A stretch of DNA of 15,153 bases, from contig JBHIAT010000082.1 of NCBI GenBank assembly GCA_046758705.1, positions 1-15,153 on the forward strand, in the 5' to 3' direction. The DNA comes from Candidatus Bipolaricaulia bacterium (GTDB lineage: Bacteria > Bipolaricaulota > Bipolaricaulia > JBHIAT01). Each line of letters opens with the position of its first letter. Position 1 is the stretch's first letter. Positions 1 to 15,085 of the stretch are shown here, piece after piece. The notes under the pieces were generated by a model. The model was not told where the DNA came from and made no database searches. It saw only the letters and a program-made list of their open reading frames with translations. The position numbers and the translations under genes were made by a program.

Positions 1-425
1 TCAACACGTTCGACCCGGAGGCCCACCCGAACTTCGACTACTTCCTGGGGCTGATCGCGCGCAACGACATCATCATCAGCCAGTACTTTGATACCCCTAG
101 TAATAAGGACATGGATATTCATGCGTCGCTGCTGTCAGCCGAGGGGAGCTTCTGGCACAGCTTGTTCAGCCAGGACTCGGCCTCGGATCATACTGACATC
201 AACCTGTACGGCGGGCTGGCCCAGGCTAACCGCGGACCGGTGGGACTGTCCAACGGCCAGGGATTTATCAAGAACTATGTCTACGACAAGCGGCTCGCCG
301 GAGTGATCAACGAGGATTCTAACAATCACCCACCGGTCTACCCGCTGGTGAAATCGGGCAATCCCAACAACCCGCAAATCAAGCCGTCGATCAGCGTGTT
401 GCTGGTGAGCATGTACGATCTATAG
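1..425 (+). CDS. 3' end of a PilX/DUF4900-like protein (partial, runs in from the left edge); paralogue of 10995..13301
   Basis: The frame from base 3 is open (NTFDPEAHPNFDYFLGLIARNDIIISQYF...) to TAG at 423-425. It aligns collinearly, with one extra codon, to 12880-13301 (INTFDPNDHPNFNYFLGLIALKDVVISQYF...NYVYD...HPPVYPLVKSG...IKPSISVLLVS). The ORF-track Met at 111 is internal. Confidence 0.88.
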   Translation, partial: NTFDPEAHPNFDYFLGLIARNDIIISQYFDTPSNKDMDIHASLLSAEGSFWHSLFSQDSASDHTDINLYGGLAQANRGPVGLSNGQGFIKNYVYDKRLAGVINEDSNNHPPVYPLVKSGNPNNPQIKPSISVLLVSMYDL

Positions 426-1625: not shown

Positions 1626-1631
1626 TATAAT
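1626..1631 (+). promoter_or_regulatory. Sigma-70-type -10 box for the riboswitch-1 leader
   Basis: Perfect TATAAT 6 nt upstream of GAAGCCC (1638); a similar arrangement recurs at 10849-10854. No clear -35 box. Confidence 0.6.
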
Positions 1632-1653
1632 AGTAGTGAAGCCCAAAGACGCG

Positions 1654-1735
1654 TCCACGACAAGGGCAAACCCACCGAAAGGTGGGGACGCAAAGCCACG
1701 AATCCGTAAGGACAGTCGGGCTGCCGAAGTTGGAA
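1654..1735 (+). ncRNA. c-di-GMP-I (GEMM-I) riboswitch aptamer, copy 1
   Basis: CACGACAAGGGCAAACCCACC-GAAA-GGTGGGGACGCAAAGCC...GGGCTGCCGAA: canonical GGCAAACC, GNRA-capped P2, GGGACGCAAAGCC and RCCG core. The G20 equivalent (1665) and C92 equivalent (1724) are intact. Located in the 5' leader of 1778..2371. Confidence 0.95.
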
Positions 1736-1777
1736 TGAACGGGCTTCCAATGACCTTGAATTAATTGGAGGTGCGTA

Positions 1778-2371
1778 ATGCACATAAATCGGAATCGGAT
1801 GGCCATAACGATCGCCACGGCCTTGGTGCTGGTGATCTCGGCATCCATTGGTGTTTGGGCGGTGACCGGAGGCAACAACGGTGCAGCCGTCAATGGAACG
1901 GTCGGACCCTTGAGTGATGGGACGCCCGTCGTCTCTTGGAGTGCTTATACCTGGGCGCAGATCGCCGTCCACGGCGCGGTTGCCCTAGGGACCATCGATG
2001 ACACGACGGCCTACACCGGCGCCACGCCCAGCGGCGGTGGTGCCTTCGGGAACCTGGAGAGCCTGACTAACAACGTGTTCGTCATCACCAACGACCCCGA
2101 CGGTTGGGTGCTCCAGATCTCGGTGACAGGTACCAGTACGCCTCTGGGCTTCACCGGAGACCTGTTGGGCGACTTCCAGTGGCGGGAGACGCCGATAACC
2201 GCTGGAACTTATGCAGCAGCCACCGGGCTTGATTTACTACCGGCCACGGTAGATACGACTGCCGCAGCTGGCTCCGCGGTCTACGGCTTCGACTACAAGT
2301 ACAATATTGACATCAACGACATCCCGGGCAACTACAGCGTCACCGTCCAGTACACCGTGACCACCAACTAG
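1778..2371 (+). CDS. Secreted single-domain pilin-like protein (SCPU/Csu- or WxL-like Ig fold); candidate major fibre subunit
   Basis: RBS GGAGG at 1767-1771. Signal peptide (..SIGVWA). Rich in Gly/Thr/Ala, beta-strand pattern, internal GWVLQIS and C-terminal IPGNYSVTVQYTVTTN (PGxYxxTvxxT terminal strand typical of such pilin-like domains). The coding call is firm; the family assignment is an inference. Confidence 0.7.
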   Translation: MHINRNRMAITIATALVLVISASIGVWAVTGGNNGAAVNGTVGPLSDGTPVVSWSAYTWAQIAVHGAVALGTIDDTTAYTGATPSGGGAFGNLESLTNNVFVITNDPDGWVLQISVTGTSTPLGFTGDLLGDFQWRETPITAGTYAAATGLDLLPATVDTTAAAGSAVYGFDYKYNIDINDIPGNYSVTVQYTVTTN

Positions 2372-2415
2372 ACTCGCTTGTAACTTGTAAAGATGCAGAA
2401 GCTGTAGAGGCTAGA

Positions 2416-2451
2416 GGCGACGGCGCGTCCTCCCCCCGACGTGCCGTCGTC
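2416..2451 (+). promoter_or_regulatory. Strong intercistronic hairpin (mRNA stabiliser or partial terminator) after the first gene of the cluster
   Basis: GGCGACGGCGCGTC (2416-2429) pairs with GACGTGCCGTCGTC (2438-2451): 14-bp stem with two G-U pairs and loop CTCCCCCC. No immediate U-tract. Confidence 0.65.
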
Positions 2452-2467
2452 CGGTTTAAGGTGAACG

Positions 2468-3439
2468 ATGAAGGTGTCAAGGTCTGTTTCGGTCGCAGTT
2501 CTATTGGTGTTCTTGATTCTCGTTTCATTCTCCGTTACGGTTAAGGCCCCCCAGCAATGCAGCCCTGGAGGCGGTAATCAGCGGGTCTGCATCACCGTAC
2601 ACGCCAATCTGAACCTGGGCCTCATCGATGAGACGATCTACAGCGGGGCCACACCGGGTGGCGGCGGCAGCTTCGGGGACCTGGAGAGTCTGAGCAACAC
2701 CGTCAACGTCAAAAGCAATCCCACATGGAGTCTGGAGATTGAGGCGACGGCCACCAGTGCACCTGCGGGCTTCACCGGGAACCTGTTGGCCGACTTCCAG
2801 TGGCGCGGCGGCGATCAGGTGGCCTACACCTCGTTCCCCGCGCTCAACACCATGATGACCGTCGTCGCTTCCGACACAGGAAACAACGTTAATGTCGGTA
2901 TGGATTACCGATACAGCGTGGACATCGATGACATCCCGGGAAGCTACAGCATCACGCTTCAGTATACCGCATCCAACCAGCTCGGGTATACGATCTCGGA
3001 CACGGTGACCCTCAGTTGGGACACCTACACCTGGGCACAGATCGCCATCCACGGCGCGATCAGCTTAGGGATTATCGATGAGACGATCTACAGCGGGGCC
3101 ACACCGGGTGGCGGCGGCAGTTTTCAAGCGCTGGAGAGCACCGCAAACAACGTGTTCATCATCACCAACGACCCCGACGGCTGGACACTGCAGATCGAGA
3201 TGACGGCTAAGACGGAACCGGTGGGCTTCACCGGAGACCTGTTGGCCGACTTCCAGTGGCGCGGCGGCGACCAGGCGATCTACACCTCGTTCGCCGCGCT
3301 CAGCACTCCGATGACGGTGGCGACCACCACCAGTCAGGGATCTCAAGTCTACAATATAGATTATCGGTATACCGGGGACACCGATGACATCCCGGGCAAC
3401 TACAGCGACACGCTTCAATTCACAGTGACGACCGGTTGA
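2468..3439 (+). CDS. Secreted protein with two tandem copies of the 1778..2371 domain; candidate minor/tip subunit
   Basis: Signal peptide and an N-terminal Cys pair (QQCSPGGGNQRVC). Two repeats of LGxIDETIYSGATPGGGGSF..LES...GFTGxLLADFQWRGGDQ...DDIPGxYS.TLQxT. DNA 2624-2670 is identical to 3074-3120. Confidence 0.75.
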   Translation: MKVSRSVSVAVLLVFLILVSFSVTVKAPQQCSPGGGNQRVCITVHANLNLGLIDETIYSGATPGGGGSFGDLESLSNTVNVKSNPTWSLEIEATATSAPAGFTGNLLADFQWRGGDQVAYTSFPALNTMMTVVASDTGNNVNVGMDYRYSVDIDDIPGSYSITLQYTASNQLGYTISDTVTLSWDTYTWAQIAIHGAISLGIIDETIYSGATPGGGGSFQALESTANNVFIITNDPDGWTLQIEMTAKTEPVGFTGDLLADFQWRGGDQAIYTSFAALSTPMTVATTTSQGSQVYNIDYRYTGDTDDIPGNYSDTLQFTVTTG

Positions 3440-3464
3440 TCCCTAGGAAATAAGGAGGACGCTG

Positions 3465-4271
3465 ATGGGCAAACGTCGCAGGTTTCTGTTGATCGCGGCA
3501 CTCTTTTCAGGACTTATCTGCTATTCGTATTCGTTCACCGCCTACCCGATCCGGGTCTCGAACATGGTCTTCGAGCTGAGTCTGGCGCCGGGGGAGAGCG
3601 GGACGTTCTCGTTTGAGGTGCTCAACAACGAGACGCGGACGACCCGGATCACCGTCTATCTGGTCGATTGGCGCATCCATCCTGACGGCTCCCAGGTGTT
3701 CCTCGATCCGGGGATCTTGCCCCGTTCCAACACCGCATGGATCGTTGTCTCACCCTCCGAGTTCGGATTGAATCCTGGGGAGACCCAGGAGGTCCGGTTC
3801 ACGATCAGCGTCCCGGAGAACGTAGAGGGAGGAACCTATTGGGGGATGATCTTCGTCGAGGGCTCCCCAATCGTGACCGAGAGTGGGGGAATCTCCATCC
3901 TCACCGTGCAACGGTTCGGGATCAAGGTCTATGAGACGACCCCGGAGGCGACGCTGCGCGACGGTCGGGTGACCGGCATGAGCCTGATCAGCTTGGACCC
4001 GCTTAAGGTGAAGGTCGCGTTCGAGAACACCGGCAACGCGAGCCTACGACCGGAGGGTCGAGTGGAGGTGATGAACGAGCAAGGTGAGCTGGTCAAGCGG
4101 CTGGAGATCGGCGCGTTCTCGGTGCTTCCCGGGGCCAACCGGGAGGTTGAGGTCGTTGACGAGGGCGGCAAGCGCCTGGGGCCGGGACGCTATGTCGTCT
4201 TGGGTATAATCGACTTCGGAGGGGAGAATCTGGTCGCCGGGCGGTTGCTGTTCCAGATCACTGAGAACTGA
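3465..4271 (+). CDS. Exported two-Ig-domain protein resembling pilus chaperones (PapD/EcpB-like) or DUF916-type WxL-interacting proteins
   Basis: RBS AAGGAGG at 3452-3458; signal peptide. Motifs LAPGESGTFSFEVLN, WIVVSPSEFGLNPGETQEVRFTISVP..GTYWGMIFVE, VAFENTGNASLRPEGRVEV and SVLPGANREV. No C-terminal membrane anchor. Confidence 0.7.
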   Translation: MGKRRRFLLIAALFSGLICYSYSFTAYPIRVSNMVFELSLAPGESGTFSFEVLNNETRTTRITVYLVDWRIHPDGSQVFLDPGILPRSNTAWIVVSPSEFGLNPGETQEVRFTISVPENVEGGTYWGMIFVEGSPIVTESGGISILTVQRFGIKVYETTPEATLRDGRVTGMSLISLDPLKVKVAFENTGNASLRPEGRVEVMNEQGELVKRLEIGAFSVLPGANREVEVVDEGGKRLGPGRYVVLGIIDFGGENLVAGRLLFQITEN

Positions 4272-4324
4272 GAACGGCTGAACCCTTTCCCCGACCTGTC
4301 AGCGGCTATGATATAAAGCTGATC

Positions 4325-7300
4325 TTGAGGTCAAGAGATTTCCGTACTGTTCAGCCGATTCTAGTGAGGATCCTGCCTGTTCTCCTCCCTTTTCTATTTC
4401 TGCTCACCTATAGCGCATCGGTCGGGCTAGCTCAGTCCTCCCTTGATGTCACCTCCGCCCCTAAGGTCGGATCGTTGGGCGACTTCATCACCCACACGTT
4501 CCGACTGACCCATGCGGGCGGAGCTCAAGAGATTTATGACCTGGCACTGGAACTTCCCGAGGACTGGGAGTCCCTCGACGGGTTGGACCCGGTGACGCTG
4601 GACCCCGGCGAGGCAGACACGATCTTCATCACCGTGTTCGTCCCGTTCGCTGTGGTTGCCGGGGATTACGAGATAACGCTCACGGCGACCGCCCGAGTCA
4701 CGGCGGTTCAAGTGACGGCCTCCGCTTCGGTCAAGGTGCTTCAGGTCGCCGAGGTGATGATTCAAGCGCCGCCGGGCGCCCAGGCGCTGCCGGGGAGTCA
4801 GTTCAGCTACACGTTCGCGATCGTCAACCGCGGCAACGCTCCGGATGTGTTCGAGATCTCTGCCGACTCGGCCCATGATTGGATCGTCGAGATCTCAGAA
4901 GACCAAATCGAGCTGGTGCCCGGCGAGCGGGGAACGTTCGATATAACCCTCCAGATCCCATTGTTCGCGTCGGAGGGCCGGGATCGGCTCACCGTCGAGG
5001 TCATGTCTACCGTCTCCTCAGAGGTCTCCGATCGGGTCACGCTGTTCACCACCGTCCTGCCGCCCTCGCCTCAGGGAGTCGGGAGGAGGCTGTTCGTCGA
5101 GGTGCCGGCCGAGATCGGGTTGATGGCAGGCGGCTCGCCAGCGGGCGTGAGCACCTCCCAGTTGAAACTGTTCGCCGAGGGGGGGATCGGGGCGGACCGC
5201 CAGTTCTCTCTGGAGTCCACCCTCGGTGGGCTGACGACCCCGACGCCAACGCTTAACGCACTCATCTTTAACTATGAGACGGAGCGGTATCGGCTCAGAC
5301 TGGGGAACATCTCGACCGAGTTCGCCGAGTTTGCCAACCTGTCGGGGAGGGGGGCACAACTCGATCTGGGCGGCGAGCGGCTGGGTGTCACGGTGCTCGG
5401 CCTGGAGGTGACTGGGGGGCAACAGATCGGTGCCGCGGCCGGTCTGACCGGCGCCCTCGGCCCGATCGATGCCAGCCTCTCCTATATCGGACGGTTCGAT
5501 CAGCCGCTGAATCTTCAGACAGATCTGCTCGACCTCTCACTTGCCTACCCACTGAGTGACACCTGGACAATCGGTGCGGAGGGAGCGATCAGCCGCTCGG
5601 CTTCAGGACAGGACGTTGCCTGGTGGCTCGGTTCAGTGTTTCAAGGGGAGAACGCGTTCCTCAGCGCCGACTATGTGAAGATCGGCACAGAGTTCGTCGG
5701 TGAGCGGAGCGACGAGGCCGGCTTCCGGGTCTCTCACCAGCTGTCATTCCGCAAGCTCTCTCTGTCTCTGAGGTTCCTCATCGAACAACTCAGCGATAAC
5801 GTGGCCGGGGATCCCACCCAGCCGACGGTCACGACGACCCGCCTCCTGTCGGACTCGACCTTCTCCTCACCGGGGTTTCCCGCGCTCGGTTTCGGAACGA
5901 ACTTCGAGACGCGGCGCAGCCGCGGCCCCGCGCCGCGCACCGATGAGGAGGAGGTGGCACTCAAACTGAGCCTTGCCGGACCCCTGGGGCCGTTCTCCTA
6001 CCGCCTCTCCGGCAATTGGGGGGAGATCCGGGATCGGATCGCGGCGACTCGGTTCAGTTCGGTCAGTTACGACGTCAGCCTGAGACTGGCCCGGGGCCGC
6101 TTCTCGGGCGAGGTGGGCTATGTCGATCGTACCGTCTCAAACGCCATAACCAGCCAAATCGAGGACCGATCGATCGAGGAGCGCCTATTGCTGACCTACG
6201 AGCTGAGTCCATCTCTGTCGGCCTCCCTGAGCGCCGATCGGGATGAGCTGGGGGGAACCACCACCCTCACTCCAAAATTCACTTACCGGCTCGGTGGGGA
6301 GACAGAGATGGCAGTTGGCGGTGAGTTGGGATTCGTCGATGGACAGGGGGATGTCACTTGGACCGCTCAACTGGAGTACAATCGTGGGTTCTCTCTTCCA
6401 TTGCCCTGGATCAAGACGAAGGGGCAGGTCGAGGGTTACGTGTTCATCGATGAGAACGGGAACGGCCGTCCGGACGACGGGGAGGCTGGCCTCAGCCGGC
6501 TGGTGCTGCGCACCGGCCATACGGGCGTGCTCACCGACGAGACGGGGTTGTTTCGCTATCCCCCGCTGGAACCGGGGGAGTATGAGCTGGTCCTCGATAA
6601 CCCGCCAGCGGACCTCGTCCCGTCCATCCAACTTCCTCAACGGTTTGAACTCGCCCGCGGCGAGGTCAAGCGGATCGATATCCCGATGCAACGGGCCGCC
6701 TATATCGACGGCCGGGTCTTCGATGATCAAAACCGGGATGGTCAATTGGACCCCGGGGAACCAGGCGTGACCGGAGTCCGGGTGGCTCTGATGACAGCCG
6801 AGGGGGAGCCGATTCGCGAGGGGTTCACCGGGCCCACCGGGTGGTTTGCGTTCACCGGCCTGCTTCCCGGAGGATACCGGCTCCGGGTCGATGAGACCTG
6901 GTTCCCCCCCGGATACGAACCGACCACGCCTCAGGACCGCGAATTGACCCTGGAGCCTGAATCCCATGCCCAGGTTCAGTTCGGGGCCGCTGCCAAGGAG
7001 CGAGGGATCATCTTCACCCTGGAGAACACTCCGCCGACCGCATTATTCGTTCTGACGCCCGATCGCCCCACTATCCTGGATGAGATCCGGTTTGCCGACC
7101 GCTCGACCGACCCTGACGGGGAGATCACCCGCTGGCTTTGGGACTTCGGCGACGGGGGCGAGAGTGATGAGCCAAATCCGATCCATCGCTACCGGGAGAC
7201 GGGAACCTACCAGGTACGGCTCACCGTCACAGATGACCTCGGCTCGACCGACACGGCGGTCATCGAGCTACAGGTCGTCAATGCCCTCCCGCAGGCAGCG

Positions 7301-9274
7301 TTCGATCACGACCCCGACACGCCGACGGCCGAGGAGTTAGTTCGGTTCGTCGACCGCTCCCAGGACCCCGACGGAGAGATCATAAGCTGGCTTTGGGACT
7401 TCGGCGATGGGGCGACCGCTCAGATCCGAACCCCCCAACACACCTACCCGCGTCCGGGTCGGTACCGGGTGACCCTGATCGTTACCGATGACGATCGGGG
7501 CCAAAATACCGTCTCCCGGGAGATCGAGGTACTTCAACGTCCCAACCGCTCCCCGGTCGCCGACTTCTCCTTCGCGCCGCAACGGCCGCTCACCGGCCAG
7601 ATCCTGCAGTTCTTCGACCGTTCGACCGACCCCGATGGGAACATCACCACTTGGCGCTGGGACTTCGGGGATGGCCGTTTCTCGACCGAGCGAAACCCGA
7701 TCCATCGCTATGAGCAGGCCGGGACTTATCGGGTGAGTCTCCAGGTCGTCGACGACGATGGGGCGAGGAATACGATCCTGCAGGAGATCCACGTCGAGGC
7801 CCCCCGCGGAGCGATCGCGGTGGAGGTCTATCGGGACCACAATGGCAATAGGATCCGAGAGCCGGAGGAGGAGCTGGTCGAGGAGGCGATTGAGATCCGG
7901 GTCAACGGGAGAGAACAGACGATCGTCGGTCGAGAGGTGCTGGCCGACTTGACGGTGGGACGCTATACCCTGGAGGTCATCGACAGGAGCCTGCCCACCG
8001 GTCTCGTTTCGACCGGTCCTGCGACCGTTGTAATCGAATTGAGGCAGGGCGAGCAGGAGACGATCCCCTTCGGGCTAGCGCGCGGTGGGATGGTTGAGGT
8101 TCGCGTCTTGGAGCGCCGATTGCTCTCCCCGCCTGTTGAGCTGCTGAGCGGTGTGTTCGCGTTCCCCGGCACGTTCGTCGCCGCCCCACCGGTCAGCGAG
8201 TTGGAGATCCTCCCCGACAGCCTGAAACGCGAACTCCGGGCCCCGACCAGCCGATTGGCGTTCGCGACCATGATCCTCAACAGCTTCCAGATAAGGCAGC
8301 AGCTCACCCGGACGATGATCGGCTTCCATCTGAGTCAGCCGGCAGAGGTGACCGCCGAGATTCTGGATCAACATGGTGAAGTGGTCAGAACACTGCTGAA
8401 GGAGGAGTCGCTGGGGCATGGGCTGCACTATCGGGTCTGGGACGGACGGGCTCAGACGGGGAGAGTCGTTCCAGAGGGAACCTCCCGTTATCGGGTTTCG
8501 GCCGAAGGCGTGGATGGGGATGGACGCTCATCGCTGCTGGAGGGCGAATTGATCGTCCAATCCTGGGTGCTGCTCCTGGAGGCAGACCGAACCGGGGTGT
8601 TCGAGCGGACGTTTGAATTGGGATTGGTCGTCGGCGTCGCTCCCGGGGAGTTCGCCGGCGATCGAGCCATCACCGCCTGGGAGGCCAAGACGATCCTGGC
8701 CCGGGCGTTGAATCGGGAAAAATTCCTCCCGATCCGGATCGGCTGGATGCTGCAGGAGATCCTGGAACCGATCGAGGGGAAAGAGTCTGAGGAGACGATC
8801 ACCGGGGAACAGGCGGCCCGGATCATCGGAACCTATCTGAATCAGACCCCGCCGATCAAACCGATCAAGATGACCGGCGTACTGAATCGGGGTTTCGGGA
8901 TCGAGGTCGACGAAAAACCTGTCCCATCCGATCACGACGGTCAGTTCCGAGCGCTGATCGACGCCCGGGATATCGACGCTCTGGATGGTGAAATCCCATT
9001 GGTCTTTGTGACCGAGGAACCGGACGATCGCCTCCAGGTCATCCGGGAGGGGGTCGGCGGCTTGATGGTGGCAGTCGGCGATGTGGGGCAGCTCACCGAC
9101 GAGACAGGACGAGCGAGCTTCACCGGGGTGGGGCCGGGCCGACATAGGGTCAGGCTGTTTCCTGAATCGCTGGCGGGGAGGTTCAAGTTGGTATCCGACG
9201 GGATTTTTGATATGATGGTGGAAGAAGGGGAACGAACGGTTGTGACGTTTGAGGTGGTCGTGATCGGAATGTAG
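4325..9274 (+). CDS. Giant multidomain exported protein: 2x Ig-like, predicted outer-membrane beta-barrel, SdrD-B-like repeats, 3x PKD, FlgD-Ig-like and SLH-like motifs; candidate usher-like platform
   Basis: 1649-codon ORF; the start is uncertain (TTG 4325 or GTG 4364). Signal peptide, then Ig domains (VTLDPGEA; IVNRGNAPDVF..LVPGE). Amphipathic strand region at ~5100-6410. SdrD-B-like motifs GYVFIDENGNGRPDDGE, GRVFDDQNRDGQLDPGE and VYRDHNGNRIREPEE. Three PKD repeats F.DRS.DPDG.I..W.WDFGDG....PxHxY..G.Y.V.L.V.DD at ~7020-7800. FlgD-like GFHLSQPAEVTAEILD..VVRTL..VWDGR at ~8310-8505. SLH-like GLVVGVAPGEFAGDRAITAWEAKTILARAL at ~8620-8710. Confidence 0.8.
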   Translation: MRSRDFRTVQPILVRILPVLLPFLFLLTYSASVGLAQSSLDVTSAPKVGSLGDFITHTFRLTHAGGAQEIYDLALELPEDWESLDGLDPVTLDPGEADTIFITVFVPFAVVAGDYEITLTATARVTAVQVTASASVKVLQVAEVMIQAPPGAQALPGSQFSYTFAIVNRGNAPDVFEISADSAHDWIVEISEDQIELVPGERGTFDITLQIPLFASEGRDRLTVEVMSTVSSEVSDRVTLFTTVLPPSPQGVGRRLFVEVPAEIGLMAGGSPAGVSTSQLKLFAEGGIGADRQFSLESTLGGLTTPTPTLNALIFNYETERYRLRLGNISTEFAEFANLSGRGAQLDLGGERLGVTVLGLEVTGGQQIGAAAGLTGALGPIDASLSYIGRFDQPLNLQTDLLDLSLAYPLSDTWTIGAEGAISRSASGQDVAWWLGSVFQGENAFLSADYVKIGTEFVGERSDEAGFRVSHQLSFRKLSLSLRFLIEQLSDNVAGDPTQPTVTTTRLLSDSTFSSPGFPALGFGTNFETRRSRGPAPRTDEEEVALKLSLAGPLGPFSYRLSGNWGEIRDRIAATRFSSVSYDVSLRLARGRFSGEVGYVDRTVSNAITSQIEDRSIEERLLLTYELSPSLSASLSADRDELGGTTTLTPKFTYRLGGETEMAVGGELGFVDGQGDVTWTAQLEYNRGFSLPLPWIKTKGQVEGYVFIDENGNGRPDDGEAGLSRLVLRTGHTGVLTDETGLFRYPPLEPGEYELVLDNPPADLVPSIQLPQRFELARGEVKRIDIPMQRAAYIDGRVFDDQNRDGQLDPGEPGVTGVRVALMTAEGEPIREGFTGPTGWFAFTGLLPGGYRLRVDETWFPPGYEPTTPQDRELTLEPESHAQVQFGAAAKERGIIFTLENTPPTALFVLTPDRPTILDEIRFADRSTDPDGEITRWLWDFGDGGESDEPNPIHRYRETGTYQVRLTVTDDLGSTDTAVIELQVVNALPQAAFDHDPDTPTAEELVRFVDRSQDPDGEIISWLWDFGDGATAQIRTPQHTYPRPGRYRVTLIVTDDDRGQNTVSREIEVLQRPNRSPVADFSFAPQRPLTGQILQFFDRSTDPDGNITTWRWDFGDGRFSTERNPIHRYEQAGTYRVSLQVVDDDGARNTILQEIHVEAPRGAIAVEVYRDHNGNRIREPEEELVEEAIEIRVNGREQTIVGREVLADLTVGRYTLEVIDRSLPTGLVSTGPATVVIELRQGEQETIPFGLARGGMVEVRVLERRLLSPPVELLSGVFAFPGTFVAAPPVSELEILPDSLKRELRAPTSRLAFATMILNSFQIRQQLTRTMIGFHLSQPAEVTAEILDQHGEVVRTLLKEESLGHGLHYRVWDGRAQTGRVVPEGTSRYRVSAEGVDGDGRSSLLEGELIVQSWVLLLEADRTGVFERTFELGLVVGVAPGEFAGDRAITAWEAKTILARALNREKFLPIRIGWMLQEILEPIEGKESEETITGEQAARIIGTYLNQTPPIKPIKMTGVLNRGFGIEVDEKPVPSDHDGQFRALIDARDIDALDGEIPLVFVTEEPDDRLQVIREGVGGLMVAVGDVGQLTDETGRASFTGVGPGRHRVRLFPESLAGRFKLVSDGIFDMMVEEGERTVVTFEVVVIGM

Positions 9275-9324
9275 CGGTTTTTTTCGGGGGATTTCGAATA
9301 ATTCTTAAGTAAAAGGAGGTTGCA

Positions 9325-10743
9325 GTGTTTAAAACTAGAAATATTTTCATTTTTATCCTCATCCTGACATTTTCGGTTTTAATCCTCCTGTTCTATTCCA
9401 CAACCATCGCGTTGGGTTCCGAGCTCCAGCTGTCTGCGTCGGTTGTCCAGGCGAACTCCCTGTTCCGGATGACGGTGGTCTCCACCAGGGTAGAGCAGAT
9501 CACCGTGACCCTGCCCAACGGGTTCTTGTTCCGGGCTACGCCCAAGCTGGGCAAGGCGGAGGGAAATCGTTACTGGGTCCTATCGATCGACGACGAGCGG
9601 TTCGAATTCACGGTGATGAGCGGCGCGCCCCCCGGACGTTTCGTCATCGGGGCGATCTTCGACGTCATCGGTGGAGAGCCAGTTGAAGTCAAGCAGGAGA
9701 TCCAAGTGGAGGGTCCGGTGGGTGCCGCTGTCGAAGTCGAAGCTGAGGCTGAGGCTGAGGTTCCGGTGTCAGGACCGAGGGTGGCGGTCACAGAGACGCT
9801 GATCCGACTCAGGAGCAGCGGATCGGTCGAAGTCGTGCTCTCCGAGGCTCCGCAGGGGCTTCGGGCGTTCGACTTCACCGTCTTCATTCGGTCGGAATCG
9901 AATAGAGCTGTGGTCGGGCTTGCCGGCCTTGAACCCGGCGTAATTGACGGACAATTCTTCGAACAGGTGAGACGTGGCCCGACGTTCGCTACGTTTAGGG
10001 GGGTGGACTTCAGCGATCGGGTCCGTGCCGGTGCCCAGGGGGTGCGGCTCGCCAAGCTCATTCTGAATGGAGTCTTCGAGGGAACGGCGACAGTGGCCGT
10101 AACCGTCAACATCATGGTGGACGATCTCGGCGCATCGATAACGTCTGCAGGAGTGCCAGGGCAGGTCCAAGTGGTCCAGATCCTGCCGATCGGTGATCAT
10201 GACATCCCGCCCCAGGACCTCGACGAGGACGGGCGGTTTGAGGACATCGATGGCGACGGCCAGTTGACCAGACGCGATGCGATCAGCTTTGCCTTCAACC
10301 TCGGTGATCCTGAGATCAAGGTGAGTCCGAAAGCCTTCGACTTTGATGGGAACGGACAGGTGGAGTTCAGCGATGCGATCACACTGGCGACGGCTACGCT
10401 GGGAGCATCGAGGGTAGAGGAGCCACCGGTCACCGTGATGGCGGTGCGCTTCTTCGCCCACCCCGATCACACGCGTATCGTCTATGACCTCAGCAACGAG
10501 CCGGACCCGGAGATCATGGCGGTTTCGGACCCGCCGCGCATCGTCGTAGCGCTTGGCAACGCCCAACTTGCCGGAACCCTCGATTCCCGCGACGTCCCGG
10601 TGGGTAGCCCTGAGGTCACACGGGTCCGCTATCAGCTTCAGGAGACCGGGGTTCGCCTGATCGCTGAGTTGAACGGCGAACACGGTTACCGGTTGTTCAC
10701 CCTGACCGATCCCTATCGAATCGTCATCGACGTAGGGATATAA
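9325..10743 (+). CDS. Exported protein with cohesin-like, dockerin-like (paired Ca-binding loops) and C-terminal AMIN domains
   Basis: RBS AGGAGGT at 9314-9320, GTG start, signal peptide. Cohesin-like VVLSEAPQGLRAFDFTV...GAQGVRLAKLIL...IMVDDLG at ~9820-10180. Dockerin-like PQDLDEDGRFEDIDGDGQLTRRDA...AFDFDGNGQVEFSDAITLA at ~10207-10390. AMIN-like VRFFAHPDHTRIVYDL..DPPRIVV...RLFTLTDPYRIVIDV at ~10430-10740. Confidence 0.78.
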   Translation: MFKTRNIFIFILILTFSVLILLFYSTTIALGSELQLSASVVQANSLFRMTVVSTRVEQITVTLPNGFLFRATPKLGKAEGNRYWVLSIDDERFEFTVMSGAPPGRFVIGAIFDVIGGEPVEVKQEIQVEGPVGAAVEVEAEAEAEVPVSGPRVAVTETLIRLRSSGSVEVVLSEAPQGLRAFDFTVFIRSESNRAVVGLAGLEPGVIDGQFFEQVRRGPTFATFRGVDFSDRVRAGAQGVRLAKLILNGVFEGTATVAVTVNIMVDDLGASITSAGVPGQVQVVQILPIGDHDIPPQDLDEDGRFEDIDGDGQLTRRDAISFAFNLGDPEIKVSPKAFDFDGNGQVEFSDAITLATATLGASRVEEPPVTVMAVRFFAHPDHTRIVYDLSNEPDPEIMAVSDPPRIVVALGNAQLAGTLDSRDVPVGSPEVTRVRYQLQETGVRLIAELNGEHGYRLFTLTDPYRIVIDVGI

Positions 10744-10745
10744 TG

Positions 10746-10801
10746 AGCGGTCAGCCGTCAGGAAAACACTAAACAACTTTTGACCTTAAGCTGAACGCTT
10801 G
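10746..10801. repeat. Heptamer-armed palindromic intergenic element, copy 2 (shorter)
   Basis: AGCGGTC-AGCCGTC-AGGAAAACACTAAA...CCTTAAGCTGA. GTCAGGAAAACACTAAA at 10757-10773 is identical to 620-636. Confidence 0.7.
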
Positions 10802-10848
10802 CATTCCTCTACCTCACCTAATCATGGCTAAACCTTTGGGTTTCGGCG

Positions 10849-10854
10849 TATAAT
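10849..10854 (+). promoter_or_regulatory. Sigma-70-type -10 box for the riboswitch-2 leader
   Basis: TATAAT in the same CGTATAAT context as 1624-1631, 8 nt upstream of GAAGCCCAAAGACGC. Confidence 0.6.
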
Positions 10855-10878
10855 TATGGGTCGAAGCCCAAAGACGCA

Positions 10879-10957
10879 TCCACGATAAAGGCAAACCCAT
10901 CGAAAGGTGGGGACGCAAAGCCACGGATCCGAAAGGACAGCCGAGCTTGAGTTGGGA
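10879..10957 (+). ncRNA. c-di-GMP-I (GEMM-I) riboswitch aptamer, copy 2, with a degenerate 3' end
   Basis: CACGATAAAGGCAAACCCATC-GAAA-GGTGGGGACGCAAAGCCACGGATCC-GAAA-GGACAGCCGAGCT. The G20 equivalent (10890) is intact, but the conserved GCCG after P3 is missing (GAGCTTGAG versus GGGCTGCCGAAG in copies 1 and 3). Confidence 0.85.
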
Positions 10958-10994
10958 CGGGCTTCCAGTGACTTTACATTCATTGGAGGTTCGT

Positions 10995-13301
10995 ATGCAC
11001 AGGTTGAGCGAAACACACTGGGCGGACGACCGGGGATCGATGATGATCGTCATGTTCTTCGTCTTGTTGGTCGTCACCCTACTGGGCGTCGGCTACTTCA
11101 GCATCTCCCTCAACAGCCAACGGTACAGCTCTCTGATCCAAGACAGCGAACGGTCCCTGTACATTGCCAAGGCCGGCATCCACCGCGCCGAACAGTACAT
11201 CGTCAACCGCCTGGGCGGCTTTGAGGCGTTCCAGATAGCTGCCCCGAGCTGGATCCCCGTCGAATATCAGACGAACGGCTACCTGCTGGCCAACGAGACG
11301 GACATTACCAACGCTCAGATACTCAGCGCCGATGTGTTCATCATCACGGATACCTCCGGCATCTCCCCGGCATTCCTCATTCTGTCCCGGGGCCAGCATG
11401 AGGGGACGGAACGGCTGTTGATGGAGCGATTCGAGTTCGGTGGCGGGATCAGCTCGTTGGCCCGCTACGCGTTGTTCCAAAACTCGAACAGCATGTCAGA
11501 CAAGTTTGGCGGTTACGATATCTGGTTCATCGGGGGTGATTTGATCGACGGCCCACTTCACACCAACACCCAGGACCCAGACGATATGCTCAAGCTCATA
11601 ATGATGTATAGTAAGAATGAGTTGAAAGAGCACCCCCAGTTCCTCGCCAAGGTGACGACCACCAACAACCGGCTGAAGATCCGACGTTGCCAATCGCCAT
11701 TGTCCTGCACGAGCGAATACTTCCGGTTCCAGGCAAACCCCGACACCTATGGCGACCCGTTGTTCGAAGCCGTCCATCCGGGCTGGCAGGAGAACATCTT
11801 CCAGGGCGGGATCGTCTACGCTGCCGAGCCCCTGCAGATGATCTACGACACCCAGACCGGCAGTGACTTCGACGCGATGCATCGCGAAGCAGTCCGCCAT
11901 GGCACCGTCCTGCCCGACTATCGGCTGCTCAAGACCTATGTCCAAACCACGGGTGGAACCGCCGCCACCGATCCGGACACCGGAGATTACCTCATCCCCG
12001 AACTCACCTACTGGGCGTACACCGGCACCCAGACCGCCCCATTCTGGGGCGTCGATCCATACGACCTGGGCCAGAGCTCAGACGTGCCGACCGATCTGGT
12101 GGCTGACTACCAGTACGCTGGGGTTTCTGAAGCGGCTCAGATCTGGTATGACAACCCGGCCAATCCCCAGTCGAAGGTGGTTCTGGAGAAGCGCAAGTTT
12201 GAGTATCCGTTCCACTGGCAGGCGGACTACTACGTACGGGTGACCGATGACCAATGGATGCACGAGCTGCGCGACTGGGACGAGTTGACCGGGGAGATGA
12301 CCGACATCGGGTTCCAGCAGCAGGCGGGAACCGGCGATACCTCCACCCCTAACTCCACGCTGTGGATGAACCCGGCGACCTACCAGTGCGTGGATGAGTG
12401 CGATGGACCTGAAGATCTGGTCTTGGTCAGCCAGACGGAGTACATCGAGATCGAGGAGATTCAGCAGTGGAAGATCTACATCAACGACAACCAGTTCGAG
12501 TACTACTACACGACCCAAACCCCGAACTATTTCGGTCCCAAGAACTTCAACATCTACGGCAACTGCAGAGGCTCGATCATCGACTACGGCGAGCCGAACG
12601 TCTGCAACGACGGCGGCGACCTCGATCCCAATGACTCCACCATCTGGAACCAGGTCCAGACTGCGACCACCTCGATCTCGGGGATGAATCCGATCGCCCC
12701 CGGCCAGAACATCTGGGGACTGCTCAGCTCGATCCAGTCGACCAACAACACCCTGTACAGTACAGGGAACCTGTATGTCGCCGGCAGTTACGGGACGTCG
12801 GCCTCCATCATCAGCCGGGAGAATATCTACTTCTACGACGACATCACCGCCAAGTATCTGGACGATGGGGGTTACGACATCAACACGTTCGACCCGAACG
12901 ACCACCCGAACTTCAACTACTTCCTGGGGTTGATCGCGCTCAAGGATGTGGTCATCAGTCAGTACTTTAATGATCCTGATAAGGACATCGACCTGCACGC
13001 GGCGATCCTGGCAACCGAGGGGAGCTTCTGGTACAGCCTGTTCAGCCAGGACCCGGCCTCGGCTCATGACCAGATCAACCTGTACGGTGGGCTGGCCCAG
13101 TATGCCCGTGGGCCGGTGGGGCTGTCTAACGGCAAGGGGTTCCTCAAGAACTACGTCTACGACGAGCGGTTTGCTGGGTTGGTCAATGAGAATTTCAAGA
13201 ACCACCCGCCGGTCTACCCGCTGGTCAAATCGGGCGATCCCACCAACCCCGAGATCAAGCCGTCGATCAGCGTGTTGCTGGTGAGTATTCAGGAGCTATA
13301 G
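10995..13301 (+). CDS. PilX/GspK-type minor-pilin-like protein with a large DUF4900-like C-terminal region
   Basis: RBS GGAGG at 10985-10989 supports ATG 10995. Class III signal DDRG|SMMIVMFFVLLVVTLLGVG without Glu+5, followed by SLYIAKAGIHRAEQYI (PilX-N-like). Motifs WFIGGDLIDGPLHTN, LGLIALKDVVI, INLYGGLAQ..RGPVG..GFLKNYVYDERF..PPVYP. Confidence 0.8.
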   Translation: MHRLSETHWADDRGSMMIVMFFVLLVVTLLGVGYFSISLNSQRYSSLIQDSERSLYIAKAGIHRAEQYIVNRLGGFEAFQIAAPSWIPVEYQTNGYLLANETDITNAQILSADVFIITDTSGISPAFLILSRGQHEGTERLLMERFEFGGGISSLARYALFQNSNSMSDKFGGYDIWFIGGDLIDGPLHTNTQDPDDMLKLIMMYSKNELKEHPQFLAKVTTTNNRLKIRRCQSPLSCTSEYFRFQANPDTYGDPLFEAVHPGWQENIFQGGIVYAAEPLQMIYDTQTGSDFDAMHREAVRHGTVLPDYRLLKTYVQTTGGTAATDPDTGDYLIPELTYWAYTGTQTAPFWGVDPYDLGQSSDVPTDLVADYQYAGVSEAAQIWYDNPANPQSKVVLEKRKFEYPFHWQADYYVRVTDDQWMHELRDWDELTGEMTDIGFQQQAGTGDTSTPNSTLWMNPATYQCVDECDGPEDLVLVSQTEYIEIEEIQQWKIYINDNQFEYYYTTQTPNYFGPKNFNIYGNCRGSIIDYGEPNVCNDGGDLDPNDSTIWNQVQTATTSISGMNPIAPGQNIWGLLSSIQSTNNTLYSTGNLYVAGSYGTSASIISRENIYFYDDITAKYLDDGGYDINTFDPNDHPNFNYFLGLIALKDVVISQYFNDPDKDIDLHAAILATEGSFWYSLFSQDPASAHDQINLYGGLAQYARGPVGLSNGKGFLKNYVYDERFAGLVNENFKNHPPVYPLVKSGDPTNPEIKPSISVLLVSIQEL

Positions 13302-13464
13302 AGGTGAGGACGGAGATCCCTAAGTGTCTGACCGTTCATCTGCAACTCGATGTGAACTGCTGAGACTAGAGGCATGGTATTTCACCTTGTTATACTTATT
13401 CGATGGGTTGATGTCGTCATGTTATATGGATGGGCCATCGAGAGGGTCATGCGAGATGAGAGAT

Positions 13465-13539
13465 AGCTGTCAGCCATCAGCTCAAGAAAATATGCATTTG
13501 CTGTTGACGTTTAGCTGAGAGCTGATCGCTGAGGGCTTA
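13465..13539. repeat. Heptamer-armed palindromic intergenic element, copy 3 (divergent core)
   Basis: AGCTGTC-AGCCATC-AGC, core TCAAGAAAATATGCATTTG.., right arm TAGCTGA-GAGCTGA-TCGCTGA-GGGCTTA. Confidence 0.7.
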
Positions 13540-13843
13540 GGCTGTTTTGCGATCTGGTGGGCGGGGTCTCTCTACGGACGCCTATCCGGACATGCTCAGA
13601 GCGAATGAGTATTAGGAGTGTCCAAGGCCAACTGCCAGAGCTCATAGCTTATTCGATGAGCTAGGTATTTCGGGCTCAAATCCAGCTCCAACATAGCCGT
13701 CGCGCTTAGATGGCAATAGACAGCCGCTCAGAACATCTGGCGTCGAATTGACGCTCTCTCCACGATCCACTCCGTTGGCTCACCCGTTCAGGTATTAGGA
13801 TTTGGGTTTTTGGGGCACAATAGGGGGTGAATACCAAGGGTAC

Positions 13844-13923
13844 GTCTACGACAAAGGCAAACCCATCGAAAGATGGGGACGCAAAGCCGCGAATCCGAAA
13901 GGACGGTCGGGCTGCCGAAGGAC
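13844..13923 (+). ncRNA. c-di-GMP-I (GEMM-I) riboswitch aptamer, copy 3
   Basis: TACGACAAAGGCAAACCCATC-GAAA-GATGGGGACGCAAAGCCGCGAATCC-GAAA-GGACGGTCGGGCTGCCGAAG. The G20 (13856) and C92 (13915) equivalents are intact. The P2 pair that is C-G in copy 1 is U-A here (compensatory change). Confidence 0.95.
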
Positions 13924-13924
13924 C

Positions 13925-15085
13925 ATGCAAAGCTTCAAGCTTGGACTCAAGCTCACCCAGGTCTGGATAGGCCGTACAATTCACTTTTGCAGACCCTTAT
14001 ATAAGGGCAGGACGGGCAACCGGGGCTCGGCGATGGTCGTGGTCGTCATCTTCTCTGTCCTGTTGGTGGGCACCCTGCTGGGCATCGGCTATCTGATCAC
14101 CTCTCTCAAAAGCGAGCGGTACAGCTCCCTGACCGAGGACAGGGAAAAGTCCCTGTTCATCGCCAAGGCTGGCATCCACCGTGCCGAACAGTACATCATC
14201 AACCGAAGGGGTAACTTCGCTTCGGCGAAGGTCAACGCTCCAAGCTGGGTCCCCGCTGACTACCAGTTCTCCGGCTACCTGCTGGCGAACGAGGGCGTCT
14301 CCGACGATCAGCGGCTCAGTGCTGAGGTGTTCATCATCGAGTCGAACCCGAGCACCTACCACATCCTCTCCCAAGGCAAGTTCCAGAAGACACAGCGCAT
14401 ACTCCTTGAGACCGTCAACTTGTCCGGCGGCTCGGTCGTCGATCAGTACTTCTCGACCGCCGTCGTCGCCGATGCGGATGGGGGAATCCTAACCAGCGAA
14501 AATACCATCATCATTGCACCGGAAGGGGATAGCCTACTGTTTTCGGGGCTTCCCCCGATCATCGAGCCCAACACCTACGATGAGGATCACAGCGGCGAGA
14601 TCCTCAGCTCAGAAATCGTCCTCTCCGATATCAATCCCCACAGGCCGAAGACCTACTTCTACGATGGGATCGACTTAAGCAGCAACCAGGAGGTCGTCGT
14701 CGACGGAGACGTCCAACTGTACGTGAATGGGGATGTAGCCATCTCAGGAGGAGCACAGATCGGTCGCTGCATAGATGCGGTGAACATCTCCGGCCTCGGT
14801 AACTGTTCACTGGTCATCTACGTCCTGGGGTCGGGGAACGTGACGATTGGGGGGACTTCCGAGGTGCGTGCGGCGATTTATGCGCCACAGAGCACGCTCG
14901 TCGCCTCGAGCGGAACACCTGAGATCTACGGGGCGTTGGTCGGGTTCGCCGTTGATCTGCGGGGGAGTGTGATGGTGGTCTACGATTCTGATCTGACGGC
15001 CAAGTTGGCCGATTTAGAGGAGACCGGAGTCGAGACGATCCAGGTTGACCCCGAGGTGCAGTTTACCGGGTGGGAAGAGATCTGA
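13925..15085 (+). CDS. PilX-type minor-pilin-like protein with a short beta-solenoid-like C-terminal domain (DUF7305-like)
   Basis: First ATG after the aptamer (13925; start moderately certain). GNRG|SAMVVVVIFSVLLVGTLLGIG followed by SLFIAKAGIHRAEQYI, homologous to the N-terminus of 10995..13301. C-terminal motifs VVVDGDVQLYVNGDVAISGG, NVTIGGTSEVRAAIYAPQS, IYGALVG..VDLRGS..VVYD. Confidence 0.78.
   Translation: MQSFKLGLKLTQVWIGRTIHFCRPLYKGRTGNRGSAMVVVVIFSVLLVGTLLGIGYLITSLKSERYSSLTEDREKSLFIAKAGIHRAEQYIINRRGNFASAKVNAPSWVPADYQFSGYLLANEGVSDDQRLSAEVFIIESNPSTYHILSQGKFQKTQRILLETVNLSGGSVVDQYFSTAVVADADGGILTSENTIIIAPEGDSLLFSGLPPIIEPNTYDEDHSGEILSSEIVLSDINPHRPKTYFYDGIDLSSNQEVVVDGDVQLYVNGDVAISGGAQIGRCIDAVNISGLGNCSLVIYVLGSGNVTIGGTSEVRAAIYAPQSTLVASSGTPEIYGALVGFAVDLRGSVMVVYDSDLTAKLADLEETGVETIQVDPEVQFTGWEEI

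Follow-up and report, generated by a model that had tools for sequence, protein, structure and literature searches.

Three copies of a c-di-GMP-I riboswitch cassette on a Bipolaricaulia contig: predicted opposite control of a fibre subunit and a pilin, with a likely dead remnant between them

The window analysed here is a stretch of 15,153 nucleotides from a Candidatus Bipolaricaulia bacterium and makes up the whole of one contig (C82) in an assembly of 3.70 Mb which is 94% complete. Three DNA data sets hold the window well; all are hydrothermal-vent metagenomes from one study and are possibly its source, and no RNA data set was among those listed. An initial annotation, made from the sequence alone, described three class I cyclic di-GMP (c-di-GMP) riboswitches in the window, each heading a surface-structure transcript, and read them as a locally clustered regulon coordinating two different appendage types. 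The explanation we now favour, and hold to be probable, is that the three elements are deletion-derived copies of a promoter/c-di-GMP-I cassette distributed across the genome, with copy 1 predicted to act as an ON switch, copy 3 predicted to act as an OFF switch and copy 2 likely dead. Binding of c-di-GMP would close helix P1 of the aptamer. In the near layout (copy 3) P1 and its extension would cover the ribosome site, so that high c-di-GMP would block translation. In the far layout (copy 1) the ribosome site would be held in a hairpin of its own, and after P1 has formed the 5' flank of the aptamer would capture the arm opposite the Shine-Dalgarno (SD) sequence, the anti-SD arm, freeing the ribosome site at high c-di-GMP. 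The elements concerned are the following.

1626..1631, + strand: TATAAT, -10-like element of cassette 1 (promoter inferred from sequence; not in the output of a generic promoter scan)
1638..1644, + strand: 5' leader GAAGCCC, predicted outer helix P0, complementary to the anti-SD at 1741-1747
1655..1728, + strand: copy 1 aptamer, intact by Rfam matches and pair count (G14=1659, G20=1665, A47=1692, C92=1724)
1741..1775, + strand: copy 1 platform, an anti-SD/SD hairpin (SD GGAGG at 1767-1771), predicted translational ON; resembles the class-wide far-type platform
10849..10869, + strand: TATAAT -10-like element and GAAGCCC leader of cassette 2, from sequence and paralogy to the cassette on contig C190
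10880..10953, + strand: remnant of the copy 2 aptamer with intact P2, G20 and A47; the C92/C93 strand has been lost at the junction 10947/10948
10957..10994, + strand: 15-bp hairpin over the SD (10985-10989) of a 768-aa pilin gene, predicted ligand-independent by constrained folding
13816..13821, + strand: CACAAT, -10-like element of cassette 3, from sequence
13846..13919, + strand: copy 3 aptamer, intact by Rfam matches and pair count (G14=13850, G20=13856, A47=13883, C92=13915)
13917..13927, + strand: SD-like GAAGGA in the P1 3' strand with ATG at 13925, in frame with the pilin reading frame, predicted translational OFF by folding

The aptamers were scored with two Rfam models, RF01051 (gathering score 35 bits) and RF03167 (gathering score 59). 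Copy 1 (match at 1656-1729, +) scored 75.7 bits against RF03167 and 71.3 against RF01051, copy 3 (13847-13920, +) 71.0 and 68.6, and copy 2 (10881-10952, +) 57.2 and 59.1; E-values of the three RF03167 matches (9e-17 to 2e-11) are well outside chance. The presence of three aptamers of this class was confirmed, as all are on the + strand, belong to the c-di-GMP-I clan and pass the RF01051 gathering score. Only in the RF03167 part of the covariance-model check did one of them, copy 2, fall under the cut-off. Rfam rows for mir-27 and P27 in the window were below cut-off and were taken as chance. Although RF03167, the model of the GGC variant, scored best, membership in this variant, which we take to denote G20/G47/C92, was rejected for the window copies, all of which have A at position 47. 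Each leader in the window contains one aptamer, and none is a tandem of two or more.

The individual bases described initially were found as stated: a P2 pair which is C-G, U-G and U-A in copies 1, 2 and 3, a P3 pair which changes from A-U to G-C in copy 2, P3 loops of GUAA, GAAA and GAAA, and G20 in every copy. The broader statement of structure-preserving variation stood only in part. Its listed pair changes are correct, but when 80 pair cells were counted on four aptamers (the three window copies and the C190 paralog) both unpaired cells fell in copy 2, at G10884-A10950, which is the G14-C93 pair, and at C10922-A10944 in P3. Copy 3 keeps all 20 counted pairs. Covariation among these four close paralogs is not significant alone, being reached in 32 of 500 shuffles. 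According to the available text of PMC5888326 and PMC4744006, the two guanines of the ligand contact G20 and C92 with A47 between them. G20 and A47 are kept in all three window copies; C92 and the P1-closing G14-C93 pair are found in copies 1 and 3 and not in copy 2, which has GAGCT-TGAG where the other two have GGGCT-GCCG. In the source genome, for which 150 of 230 candidates were scored, there are at least 31 RF01051 matches on 14 contigs, at least 27 of them over the cut-off, and the C92-C93-G94 motif which copy 2 lacks is present in 24 of these 27. An Rfam match above cut-off can thus turn out to be a remnant without the pocket, as do 3 of the 27 here. Copy 2 is likely a deletion derivative and an unresponsive, dead remnant, because C92 and the P1-closing pair are lost and the ribosome site lies inside a 15-bp hairpin.

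The likely ligand of copies 1 and 3 is c-di-GMP. G20 and A47 are present in 27 of 27 over-cut-off aptamers of the source genome. All nine GGDEF domains (eight with an intact GGDEF motif) have Asp and not the Hypr Ser at the site equivalent to PleD D344, Ser at this site being the Hypr criterion in the accessible part of PMC7288161, and no SMODS domain was matched in the 94%-complete source genome. With no A20 in 27 aptamers, no Hypr GGDEF and no SMODS, the cyclic AMP-GMP (cGAMP; c-AMP-GMP, GEMM-Ib) subclass was rejected, and the initial preference for c-di-GMP over cGAMP was upheld for copies 1 and 3.

On the + strand none of the three aptamers is followed by a terminator-like site (10 such sites were found in the window scan, 9.9 expected), so control is probably translational, and transcription-terminator platforms were rejected. 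Direction was predicted by equilibrium folding with and without a bound-like constraint on the aptamer. In copy 3 the SD-like GAAGGA is located 2 nt before an in-frame ATG and its unpaired probability drops from 0.61 to 0.29 under the constraint; copy 3 is predicted to be an OFF switch before the pilin. In copy 1 the 5' arm of the SD hairpin can pair instead with the leader GAAGCCC. The two states lie at -54.1 and -54.0 kcal/mol when unconstrained, and fixing the aptamer core gives the leader pairing (P0) an advantage of 1.3. The bound-like constraint raised SD accessibility from 0.12 to 0.27, or from 0.02 to 0.18 in a second folding run, and copy 1 is weakly predicted to be an ON switch for the fibre subunit. 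GAAGCCC was found in 6 of 6 cassettes with a downstream anti-SD versus 3 of 13 without it, all of these being paralogs and not independent. The SD of copy 2 had an unpaired probability of 0.0 with and without constraints and its hairpin was favoured over P0 by about 9 kcal/mol; copy 2 is predicted to be unresponsive, and a gene stuck off or a hairpin opened during transcription would both be compatible with this. The proposal of three working switches is not supported, since copy 2 has lost its pocket, nor is joint coordination of the two appendages, since the signs predicted for the copy 1 and copy 3 platforms are opposite.

Both layouts recur on fibre-subunit genes in relatives of the same class. 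This class probably falls within Candidatus Bipolaricaulota, to judge by the label on the cluster nearest to the subunit. Twenty chaperone loci were hand-picked from the best chaperone matches, some of them already known to lie near aptamers, and in 15 of the 20 an aptamer scoring over the cut-off lies upstream in the same orientation. A profile built from 23 subunits gave matches in 46 of 60 relatives at least 90% complete, and at 27 of 29 returned loci an aptamer is located directly before the best subunit match on the same strand (counted from coordinates). The leader set comprised 50 non-redundant aptamers directly before a subunit gene in 32 relatives together with 2 from the source genome; excluded from it were the upstream members of tandems, repeat retrievals of the same locus, one identical duplicate and one aptamer lacking an open reading frame (ORF). 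Twenty-eight leaders have the near layout, with the start codon 7-20 nt after C92, and 24 have the far layout, with the start codon 33-77 nt after C92 and behind an SD hairpin. In the near leaders (n=27, 27 genomes) the duplex between 5' and 3' flanks is -8.9 kcal/mol, versus -5.2 across loci and -5.1 after shuffling, and this flank helix covers the ribosome site. In the far leaders (n=23, 21 genomes) the duplex is -9.8 kcal/mol versus -6.7 across loci and -5.2 shuffled, and 22 of the 23 from relatives have a capture helix and an SD hairpin which overlap by at least 3 nt at the anti-SD arm.

On a tree of the 52 subunit proteins the layouts occupy two sides of one branch, requiring 1 change (99/97) where shuffles give 17.4. 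When signal peptides were removed (C-terminal 115 aa) 2 changes were required; the rows out of place were three that are very long or of odd composition and probably represent wrong-frame picks. Both layouts are present in 16 genomes, in 15 of them at one locus, with the near gene first in 14 (again counted from coordinates). Of 13 gaps between near and far genes, 9 showed no -10-like hexamer, which allows, and does not show, a single transcript. The window subunit is of the far type, and the near-type gene of the source genome is on contig C55. With the two layouts on sister subunit groups, the subunit mix in relatives would shift as c-di-GMP rises.

In the relatives we also observed a P2-only half aptamer (a conserved 'ghost') often placed directly before the far-type aptamer and supplying its capture strand (loci L085 3658-3701, L090 2773-2819, L096 4133-4173 and L086 2191-2235). 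At L086 (contig C44 of genome G001) two identical far-type leader and subunit units lie in tandem, and the P3 stems of the aptamer carry long 7-mer repeat insertions.

Within the source genome, a profile built from its own aptamers added one more clear copy and one remnant. The aptamers were grouped into 21 leaders, and one more remnant lies in front of a PilX-like gene on contig C68. In 16 of 19 leaders a -10-like hexamer is found directly upstream, mostly followed by a GAAGCCC-like leader. By their sequences, these are about 20 duplicated promoter-plus-riboswitch cassettes and the copies are paralogous. The locally clustered regulon of the initial annotation is consequently true only in a trivial sense: 14 contigs carry aptamers, and the cassette is genome-wide and class-wide, with RF01051 matches in 30 of 30 class relatives searched (1-17 each, these counts being lower bounds as at most 99 candidates were scored per genome). 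A record aptamer density was considered and rejected, since genome G011, with 17 in 2.1 Mb, has a similar number per Mb to the 27 in 3.7 Mb found here.

Long leaders on contigs C97, C190 and C52 consist of the promoter, aptamer A, a GGAGG linker, aptamer B and an ATG-led spacer of about 110-150 nt, followed by an anti-SD/SD hairpin and a PilX-like gene. The copy 2 cassette (10821-10921) is identical to that on C190 at 98 of 101 nt, through promoter and P2; after P2 it jumps to the hairpin, and 192 nt of the C97 leader are missing, including the pocket strand and the whole of aptamer B. Copy 1 has the whole of aptamer A and skips about 189 nt of the long leader. Copy 3 fits the loss of the 89-nt interval between A and B, with the spacer kept and in frame with its pilin gene; this spacer aligned to five long-leader spacers at z 3.6-5.3, and 0 of 300 shuffles scored as high. 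From these comparisons we infer the direction of events, from long leaders to deletion-derived copies. The 5' end of the subunit gene was also compared with the long spacer (C149 z 7.8, C81 z 6.4, copy 3 z 1.5, C97 z 1.9), and as a source of the spacer it was clear for C149 and C81, but for copy 3 and C97 it was too weak and is not claimed. In the source lineage, the cassette would have been copied before expanded PilX-like pilin genes and often have decayed.

Other members of the cassette family were noted in the same genome. Pocket-less remnants keeping the promoter side are found at C207:3934-4023, C183:5727-5800, C55:10882-10931 and C68 near 14500, where the genes behind them encode a PilB/GspE-like ATPase, an unknown ORF, a response-regulator-like ORF and a PilX paralog, in that order. 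The second tandem aptamers at C97:376-449, C190:4505-4578 and C112:3738-3805 have a simplified P2 without the GNRA loop and keep G20, A47 and C92. In the C52, C23 and C112 leaders a start codon directly after aptamer B opens short ORFs (about 42, 64 and 28 codons) which, read by eye, stop beside or overlap the SD of the main gene, suggesting translational coupling. The same cassette is also placed before small secreted proteins on C14 (two copies), C23 and C66; these end in DP(I/V)R, and those on C14 and C23 are cationic.

A number of results weigh against the explanation we favour. The loci were chosen with knowledge of the aptamers, and the subunit profile was built from aptamer-led genes. 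Individual leaders beat their shuffles at p<=0.05 in 15 of 27 near and 15 of 23 far cases, and a few near leaders (L085 2926, L127) have no OFF shift or a reversed one. Among the far leaders listed, most keep the SD hairpin with or without the bound-state constraint. The far switch is absent from most of the equilibrium folds listed because the SD hairpin is stronger than the capture helix (-15.2 versus -9.8), and kinetic control therefore has to be assumed. The near/far split is a single old event and not many independent ones. At copy 1 the gain in SD accessibility is small and the SD remains partly covered by a weaker hairpin, the 5' flank duplex is only -3.7 and the short class-type capture helix is not used, and a GUUGGAA/UUCCAAU helix visible in this leader would give the opposite sign. 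The start of the copy 3 gene is doubtful, as a gene caller places it at Met37, and the prepilin site would then be absent. The accessible portion of PMC9049102 describes lower conservation at C92 than at A47, and copy 2 may accordingly retain weak binding. Lastly, among the contig pieces listed for four DNA runs the copy 2 junction is neither confirmed nor contradicted.

These points have to be set against what other readings would require. One is that cassettes have spread mainly as promoters, with only the fibre-subunit leaders selected as switches and the aptamers of copies 2 and 3 carried as passengers. Decayed cassettes before other genes (C183, C207, C55:10882, C68:14540) would fit this, as would the mixed state of 11 PilX-like 5' ends (seven with an Rfam-level aptamer, one with a remnant, three with none) and the youth of the link between cassette and PilX-like genes, a family which was not found with this query in any of 150 class relatives. 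The full pocket is nevertheless kept in 24 of 27 source-genome aptamers, and copy 3 retains all of its counted pairs as well as a P1 extension over its SD, leading us to regard this reading as unlikely. We consider it quite unlikely that all three copies are working c-di-GMP switches of the same sign which co-regulate both appendage types. The RF01051 cut-off is passed by each, promoter and leader are of a common family with G20 and A47 kept, and the alternative copy 1 helix would make copy 1 OFF like copy 3; however, copy 2 is without C92 and G14-C93, has a P3 mismatch and an SD hairpin unresponsive in folding, and the protein behind copy 1 groups with subunits whose leaders have the capture layout (22 of 23).

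The remaining two readings concern copy 2 alone. Its junction could be an assembly chimera of near-identical paralogous leaders, as this is a metagenome assembly in which contigs end at such repeats, position 10947 is spanned by none of the contig pieces listed for the four runs, and loose ends at 10947 carry the intact GCCGAAGG of the paralog. The homology at the junction is only about 3 nt, however, with private bases on both sides, where we infer that joins from repeat collapse need long shared words; unique upstream DNA continues into the cassette 2 promoter in three runs, and comparable pocket-less remnants are found elsewhere in the source genome, so that we judge a chimera very improbable. 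We give even less credence to copy 2 as an aptamer of altered specificity, with P1 in a shifted register (G14-U, C13-G), U at position 92 and adenine favoured there (3'3'-cGAMP, flipped). Folding does yield a shifted P1 in which GUUG is paired with CGAU, and a G20A/C92U mutant of Vc2 is reported as a cyclic di-AMP (c-di-AMP) binder in the part of PMC9049102 available, which cites earlier work. Against this, the copy is alone of its kind and arose by deletion, the shifted helix occupies the pocket strand with a junction 3 nt longer, Hypr-type GGDEF domains number 0 of 9 with no SMODS match in the source genome, and C92 is present in 52 of 52 subunit-leading aptamers.

Returning to deletion-derived copies of one cassette, a wider interpretation may be offered as a tentative possibility only: that across the class c-di-GMP alters the make-up of one donor-strand pilus purely at the RNA level, and that the cassette is a portable module tuning tip pilins. 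With two sister subunit genes, frequently on a single predicted transcript, wired OFF and ON through one aptamer class, the shaft subunit would take the place of a cap, anchor or initiator subunit as c-di-GMP rises. The portable cassette, in about 20 copies re-tuned by deletion (tandem, single ON, single OFF, dead), would set interchangeable type IV tip pilins.

The genes placed downstream of the three copies, and the PilX-like fragment at the left edge, are listed below.

3..425, + strand: truncated 3' portion of a further long PilX-like paralog at the contig start; 73% identical to the 10995-13301 product over residues 630-768 of the latter
1778..2371, + strand: secreted 197-aa fibre subunit of the 'far' group, predicted donor-strand pilin fold, from fold matches and tree
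2468..3439, + strand: 323-aa protein with two subunit-like domains, 52% and 59% identical to the 1778-2371 product
3465..4271, + strand: 268-aa likely periplasmic chaperone, with weak WxLIP/Ig-like Pfam matches below cut-off
4325..9274, + strand: 1649-aa likely assembly platform, with Ig-like N-terminus, beta-barrel-like residues 250-700, SdrD_B, 3 PKD and FlgD_Ig
9325..10743, + strand: 472-aa secreted AMIN-domain protein, probably the last fibre-operon gene from its 50-nt spacing
10995..13301, + strand: 768-aa PilX-like pilin paralog with an RG|S prepilin-like site and a weak DUF4900 match
13925..15085, + strand: 386-aa PilX/GspK/ComZ-like minor pilin with a beta-solenoid (DUF7305) insertion

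Copy 1 heads five genes with close spacing. The model of the 197-aa subunit (pLDDT 79) matched TLP-1b (Z 7.8, rmsd 2.7, 125 aligned), CsuE (7.2), TasA (7.1) and a type 1 pilus subunit (7.0); donor-strand pilins make up most of the list with unrelated rows among them, and none reaches Z 8 or a Foldseek E<=0.001. No Pfam or NCBIfam family was matched by this subunit, sequence searches with it returned only itself and its neighbour and nothing in named genomes, and for 23 aligned family members no Pfam family was found beyond three single chance-level matches. Homologs of the chaperone-like gene (268 aa) are present in 125 of 150 class relatives. Residues 250-700 of the 1649-aa protein resemble outer-membrane beta-barrel clusters at 0.91-0.93, and Pfam and NCBIfam scans of this protein gave no usher family. 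The operon may work like a chaperone-usher pilus. Another subunit-family gene of the source genome (C21:4437-5030, -) has no aptamer match upstream. In the 9325-10743 product, residues ~170-350 appear by eye as a strand region followed by two DxDxDG calcium-loop motifs, with no family match; we take these to be cohesin-like and then dockerin-like. In run X3 a single contig has A1769G and T1776C, of which A1769G makes the copy 1 SD GGGGG with the U-G hairpin pair kept.

The products behind copies 2 and 3 are related, the N-terminal 150 aa of the 768-aa protein being 56% identical to the 13925-15085 product, and in both PilX-like proteins of the window RG|S precedes a hydrophobic stretch, as in class III signal sequences. 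The model of the 386-aa protein has a long N-terminal helix (33-94), a pilin domain and an inserted beta-solenoid, and in the 386-aa protein the pilin domain is closed by a C-terminal strand and bears an inserted domain. Its pilin domain matched GspK (Z 9.8, rmsd 2.9, 97 aligned), S. sanguinis PilA (8.9), ComZ (8.7) and XcpX (8.1), its beta-solenoid resembles ice-binding proteins (Z 13.2), and the ComZ match to the protein has an E of 0.0076. A Pfam scan of the window proteins gave no match to PilX_N, and single-sequence PDB searches with both PilX-like proteins found nothing; among 21 scanned homologs, 7 match PilX_N (5 above cut-off) and 4 match Tad families. The PilX-like family has 12-13 matches in the source genome, which also has type IV pilus machinery (7 N_methyl and 18 T2SSE matches). 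C97 and C190 each run out within a PilX-like gene, of which they hold the 5' fragment, and C190 and C82 each open with a 3' fragment; this pattern suggests the contig order C97, C190, C82. The fourth aptamer initially suggested before the left-edge gene would lie outside the window, which is a whole contig, and tandem aptamers are present at each of the two 5' ends which could belong to this gene (C97, C190); no end overlap of at least 15 nt joining the left edge to another contig was found. Two appendage types as targets, as initially proposed, are supported by fold and family matches, namely a donor-strand fibre and type IV PilX/ComZ-like pilins.

A few further features of the window were noted. 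A BtuF-like periplasmic binding protein (PF01497, 711-1583, +) stands alone between the PilX paralog and the fibre operon, with no Rfam match before it. At 443-479 and 2418-2449 a GC-rich hairpin, GACGGCGC...GYGCCGTC, directly follows a stop codon. The GACGGCGC hairpin has 4 copies in the source genome and is a possible mRNA stabiliser which would raise the major subunit over downstream genes. Related AT-rich intergenic spacers at 593-680, 10749-10800 and 13461-13539 are flanked by AGCTGAN-type 7-mer repeats in inverted arrangement, and because run depth is raised over some spacer bins similar spacer repeats appear to lie elsewhere.

Neither the aptamer class nor its tandem arrangement nor the control of pili by riboswitches is new, and three copies in 12 kb would be unsurprising alone; copies 1 and 3 are ordinary representatives of an established class and copy 2 is a remnant. 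In the open-access literature (subscription journals not being covered) we found no paper on riboswitches in Bipolaricaulota/Acetothermia, none on opposite translational wiring of sister pilins, and nothing relevant on per-genome records of riboswitch number. The new part is the predicted opposite wiring on paralogous subunits. If true, conserved opposite wiring would mean that c-di-GMP controls fibre composition or length and not presence alone, and would name two functional subunit types of a pilus family which has no annotation. In the source genome full-length, trimmed and broken leaders derived from a single parent form a natural series, which would let the change of platform sign be tested directly.

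Copies 1 and 3 resemble Vibrio cholerae Vc2 and the RF01051 family in having P2 with a GNRA loop, P3, and the G20/A47/C92 pocket, and in their position before surface-structure genes; unlike these, copy 2 lacks C92/C93. The available text of PMC9481103 describes 347 doublets and 12 triplets of tandem c-di-GMP-I riboswitches, and the parent leaders elsewhere in the source genome are likewise doublets or triplets, whereas the window copies are separate single leaders, 3-9 kb apart. Orphan donor-strand fibrils are known (TLP-1, in the part of PMC11494351 accessible). With donor-strand-exchange pili (Csu, CFA/I, type 1; TasA; TLP-1) the window's fibre shares a predicted Ig-like subunit fold, a signal peptide and an operon holding chaperone-like and beta-barrel-like genes; it differs in having no Pfam/NCBIfam pilin, PapD or usher family, a best Z of 7.8 and a platform protein bearing PKD and FlgD-like domains. 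The PilX/GspK/ComZ group (Thermus thermophilus ComZ, PDB 6QVI) has in common with the minor pilin the long N-terminal helix, pilin domain and inserted beta-solenoid, but a single genome here has no fewer than 11 paralogous 5' ends, the majority of them preceded by a riboswitch cassette, and the window proteins lack a PilX_N match of their own. As set out in the available sections of PMC11477304, Clostridioides difficile has 16 c-di-GMP riboswitches, 12 of class I (OFF) and 4 of class II (ON), which inversely control flagella, type IV pili and adhesins. The Bipolaricaulia genome is similar in placing many riboswitches on surface structures. In C. difficile, as far as that text goes, the sign is set by the aptamer class and acts on transcription, whereas in the present case both signs are predicted to come from a single class by way of two translation platforms, which are placed on sister subunits of the same fibre.

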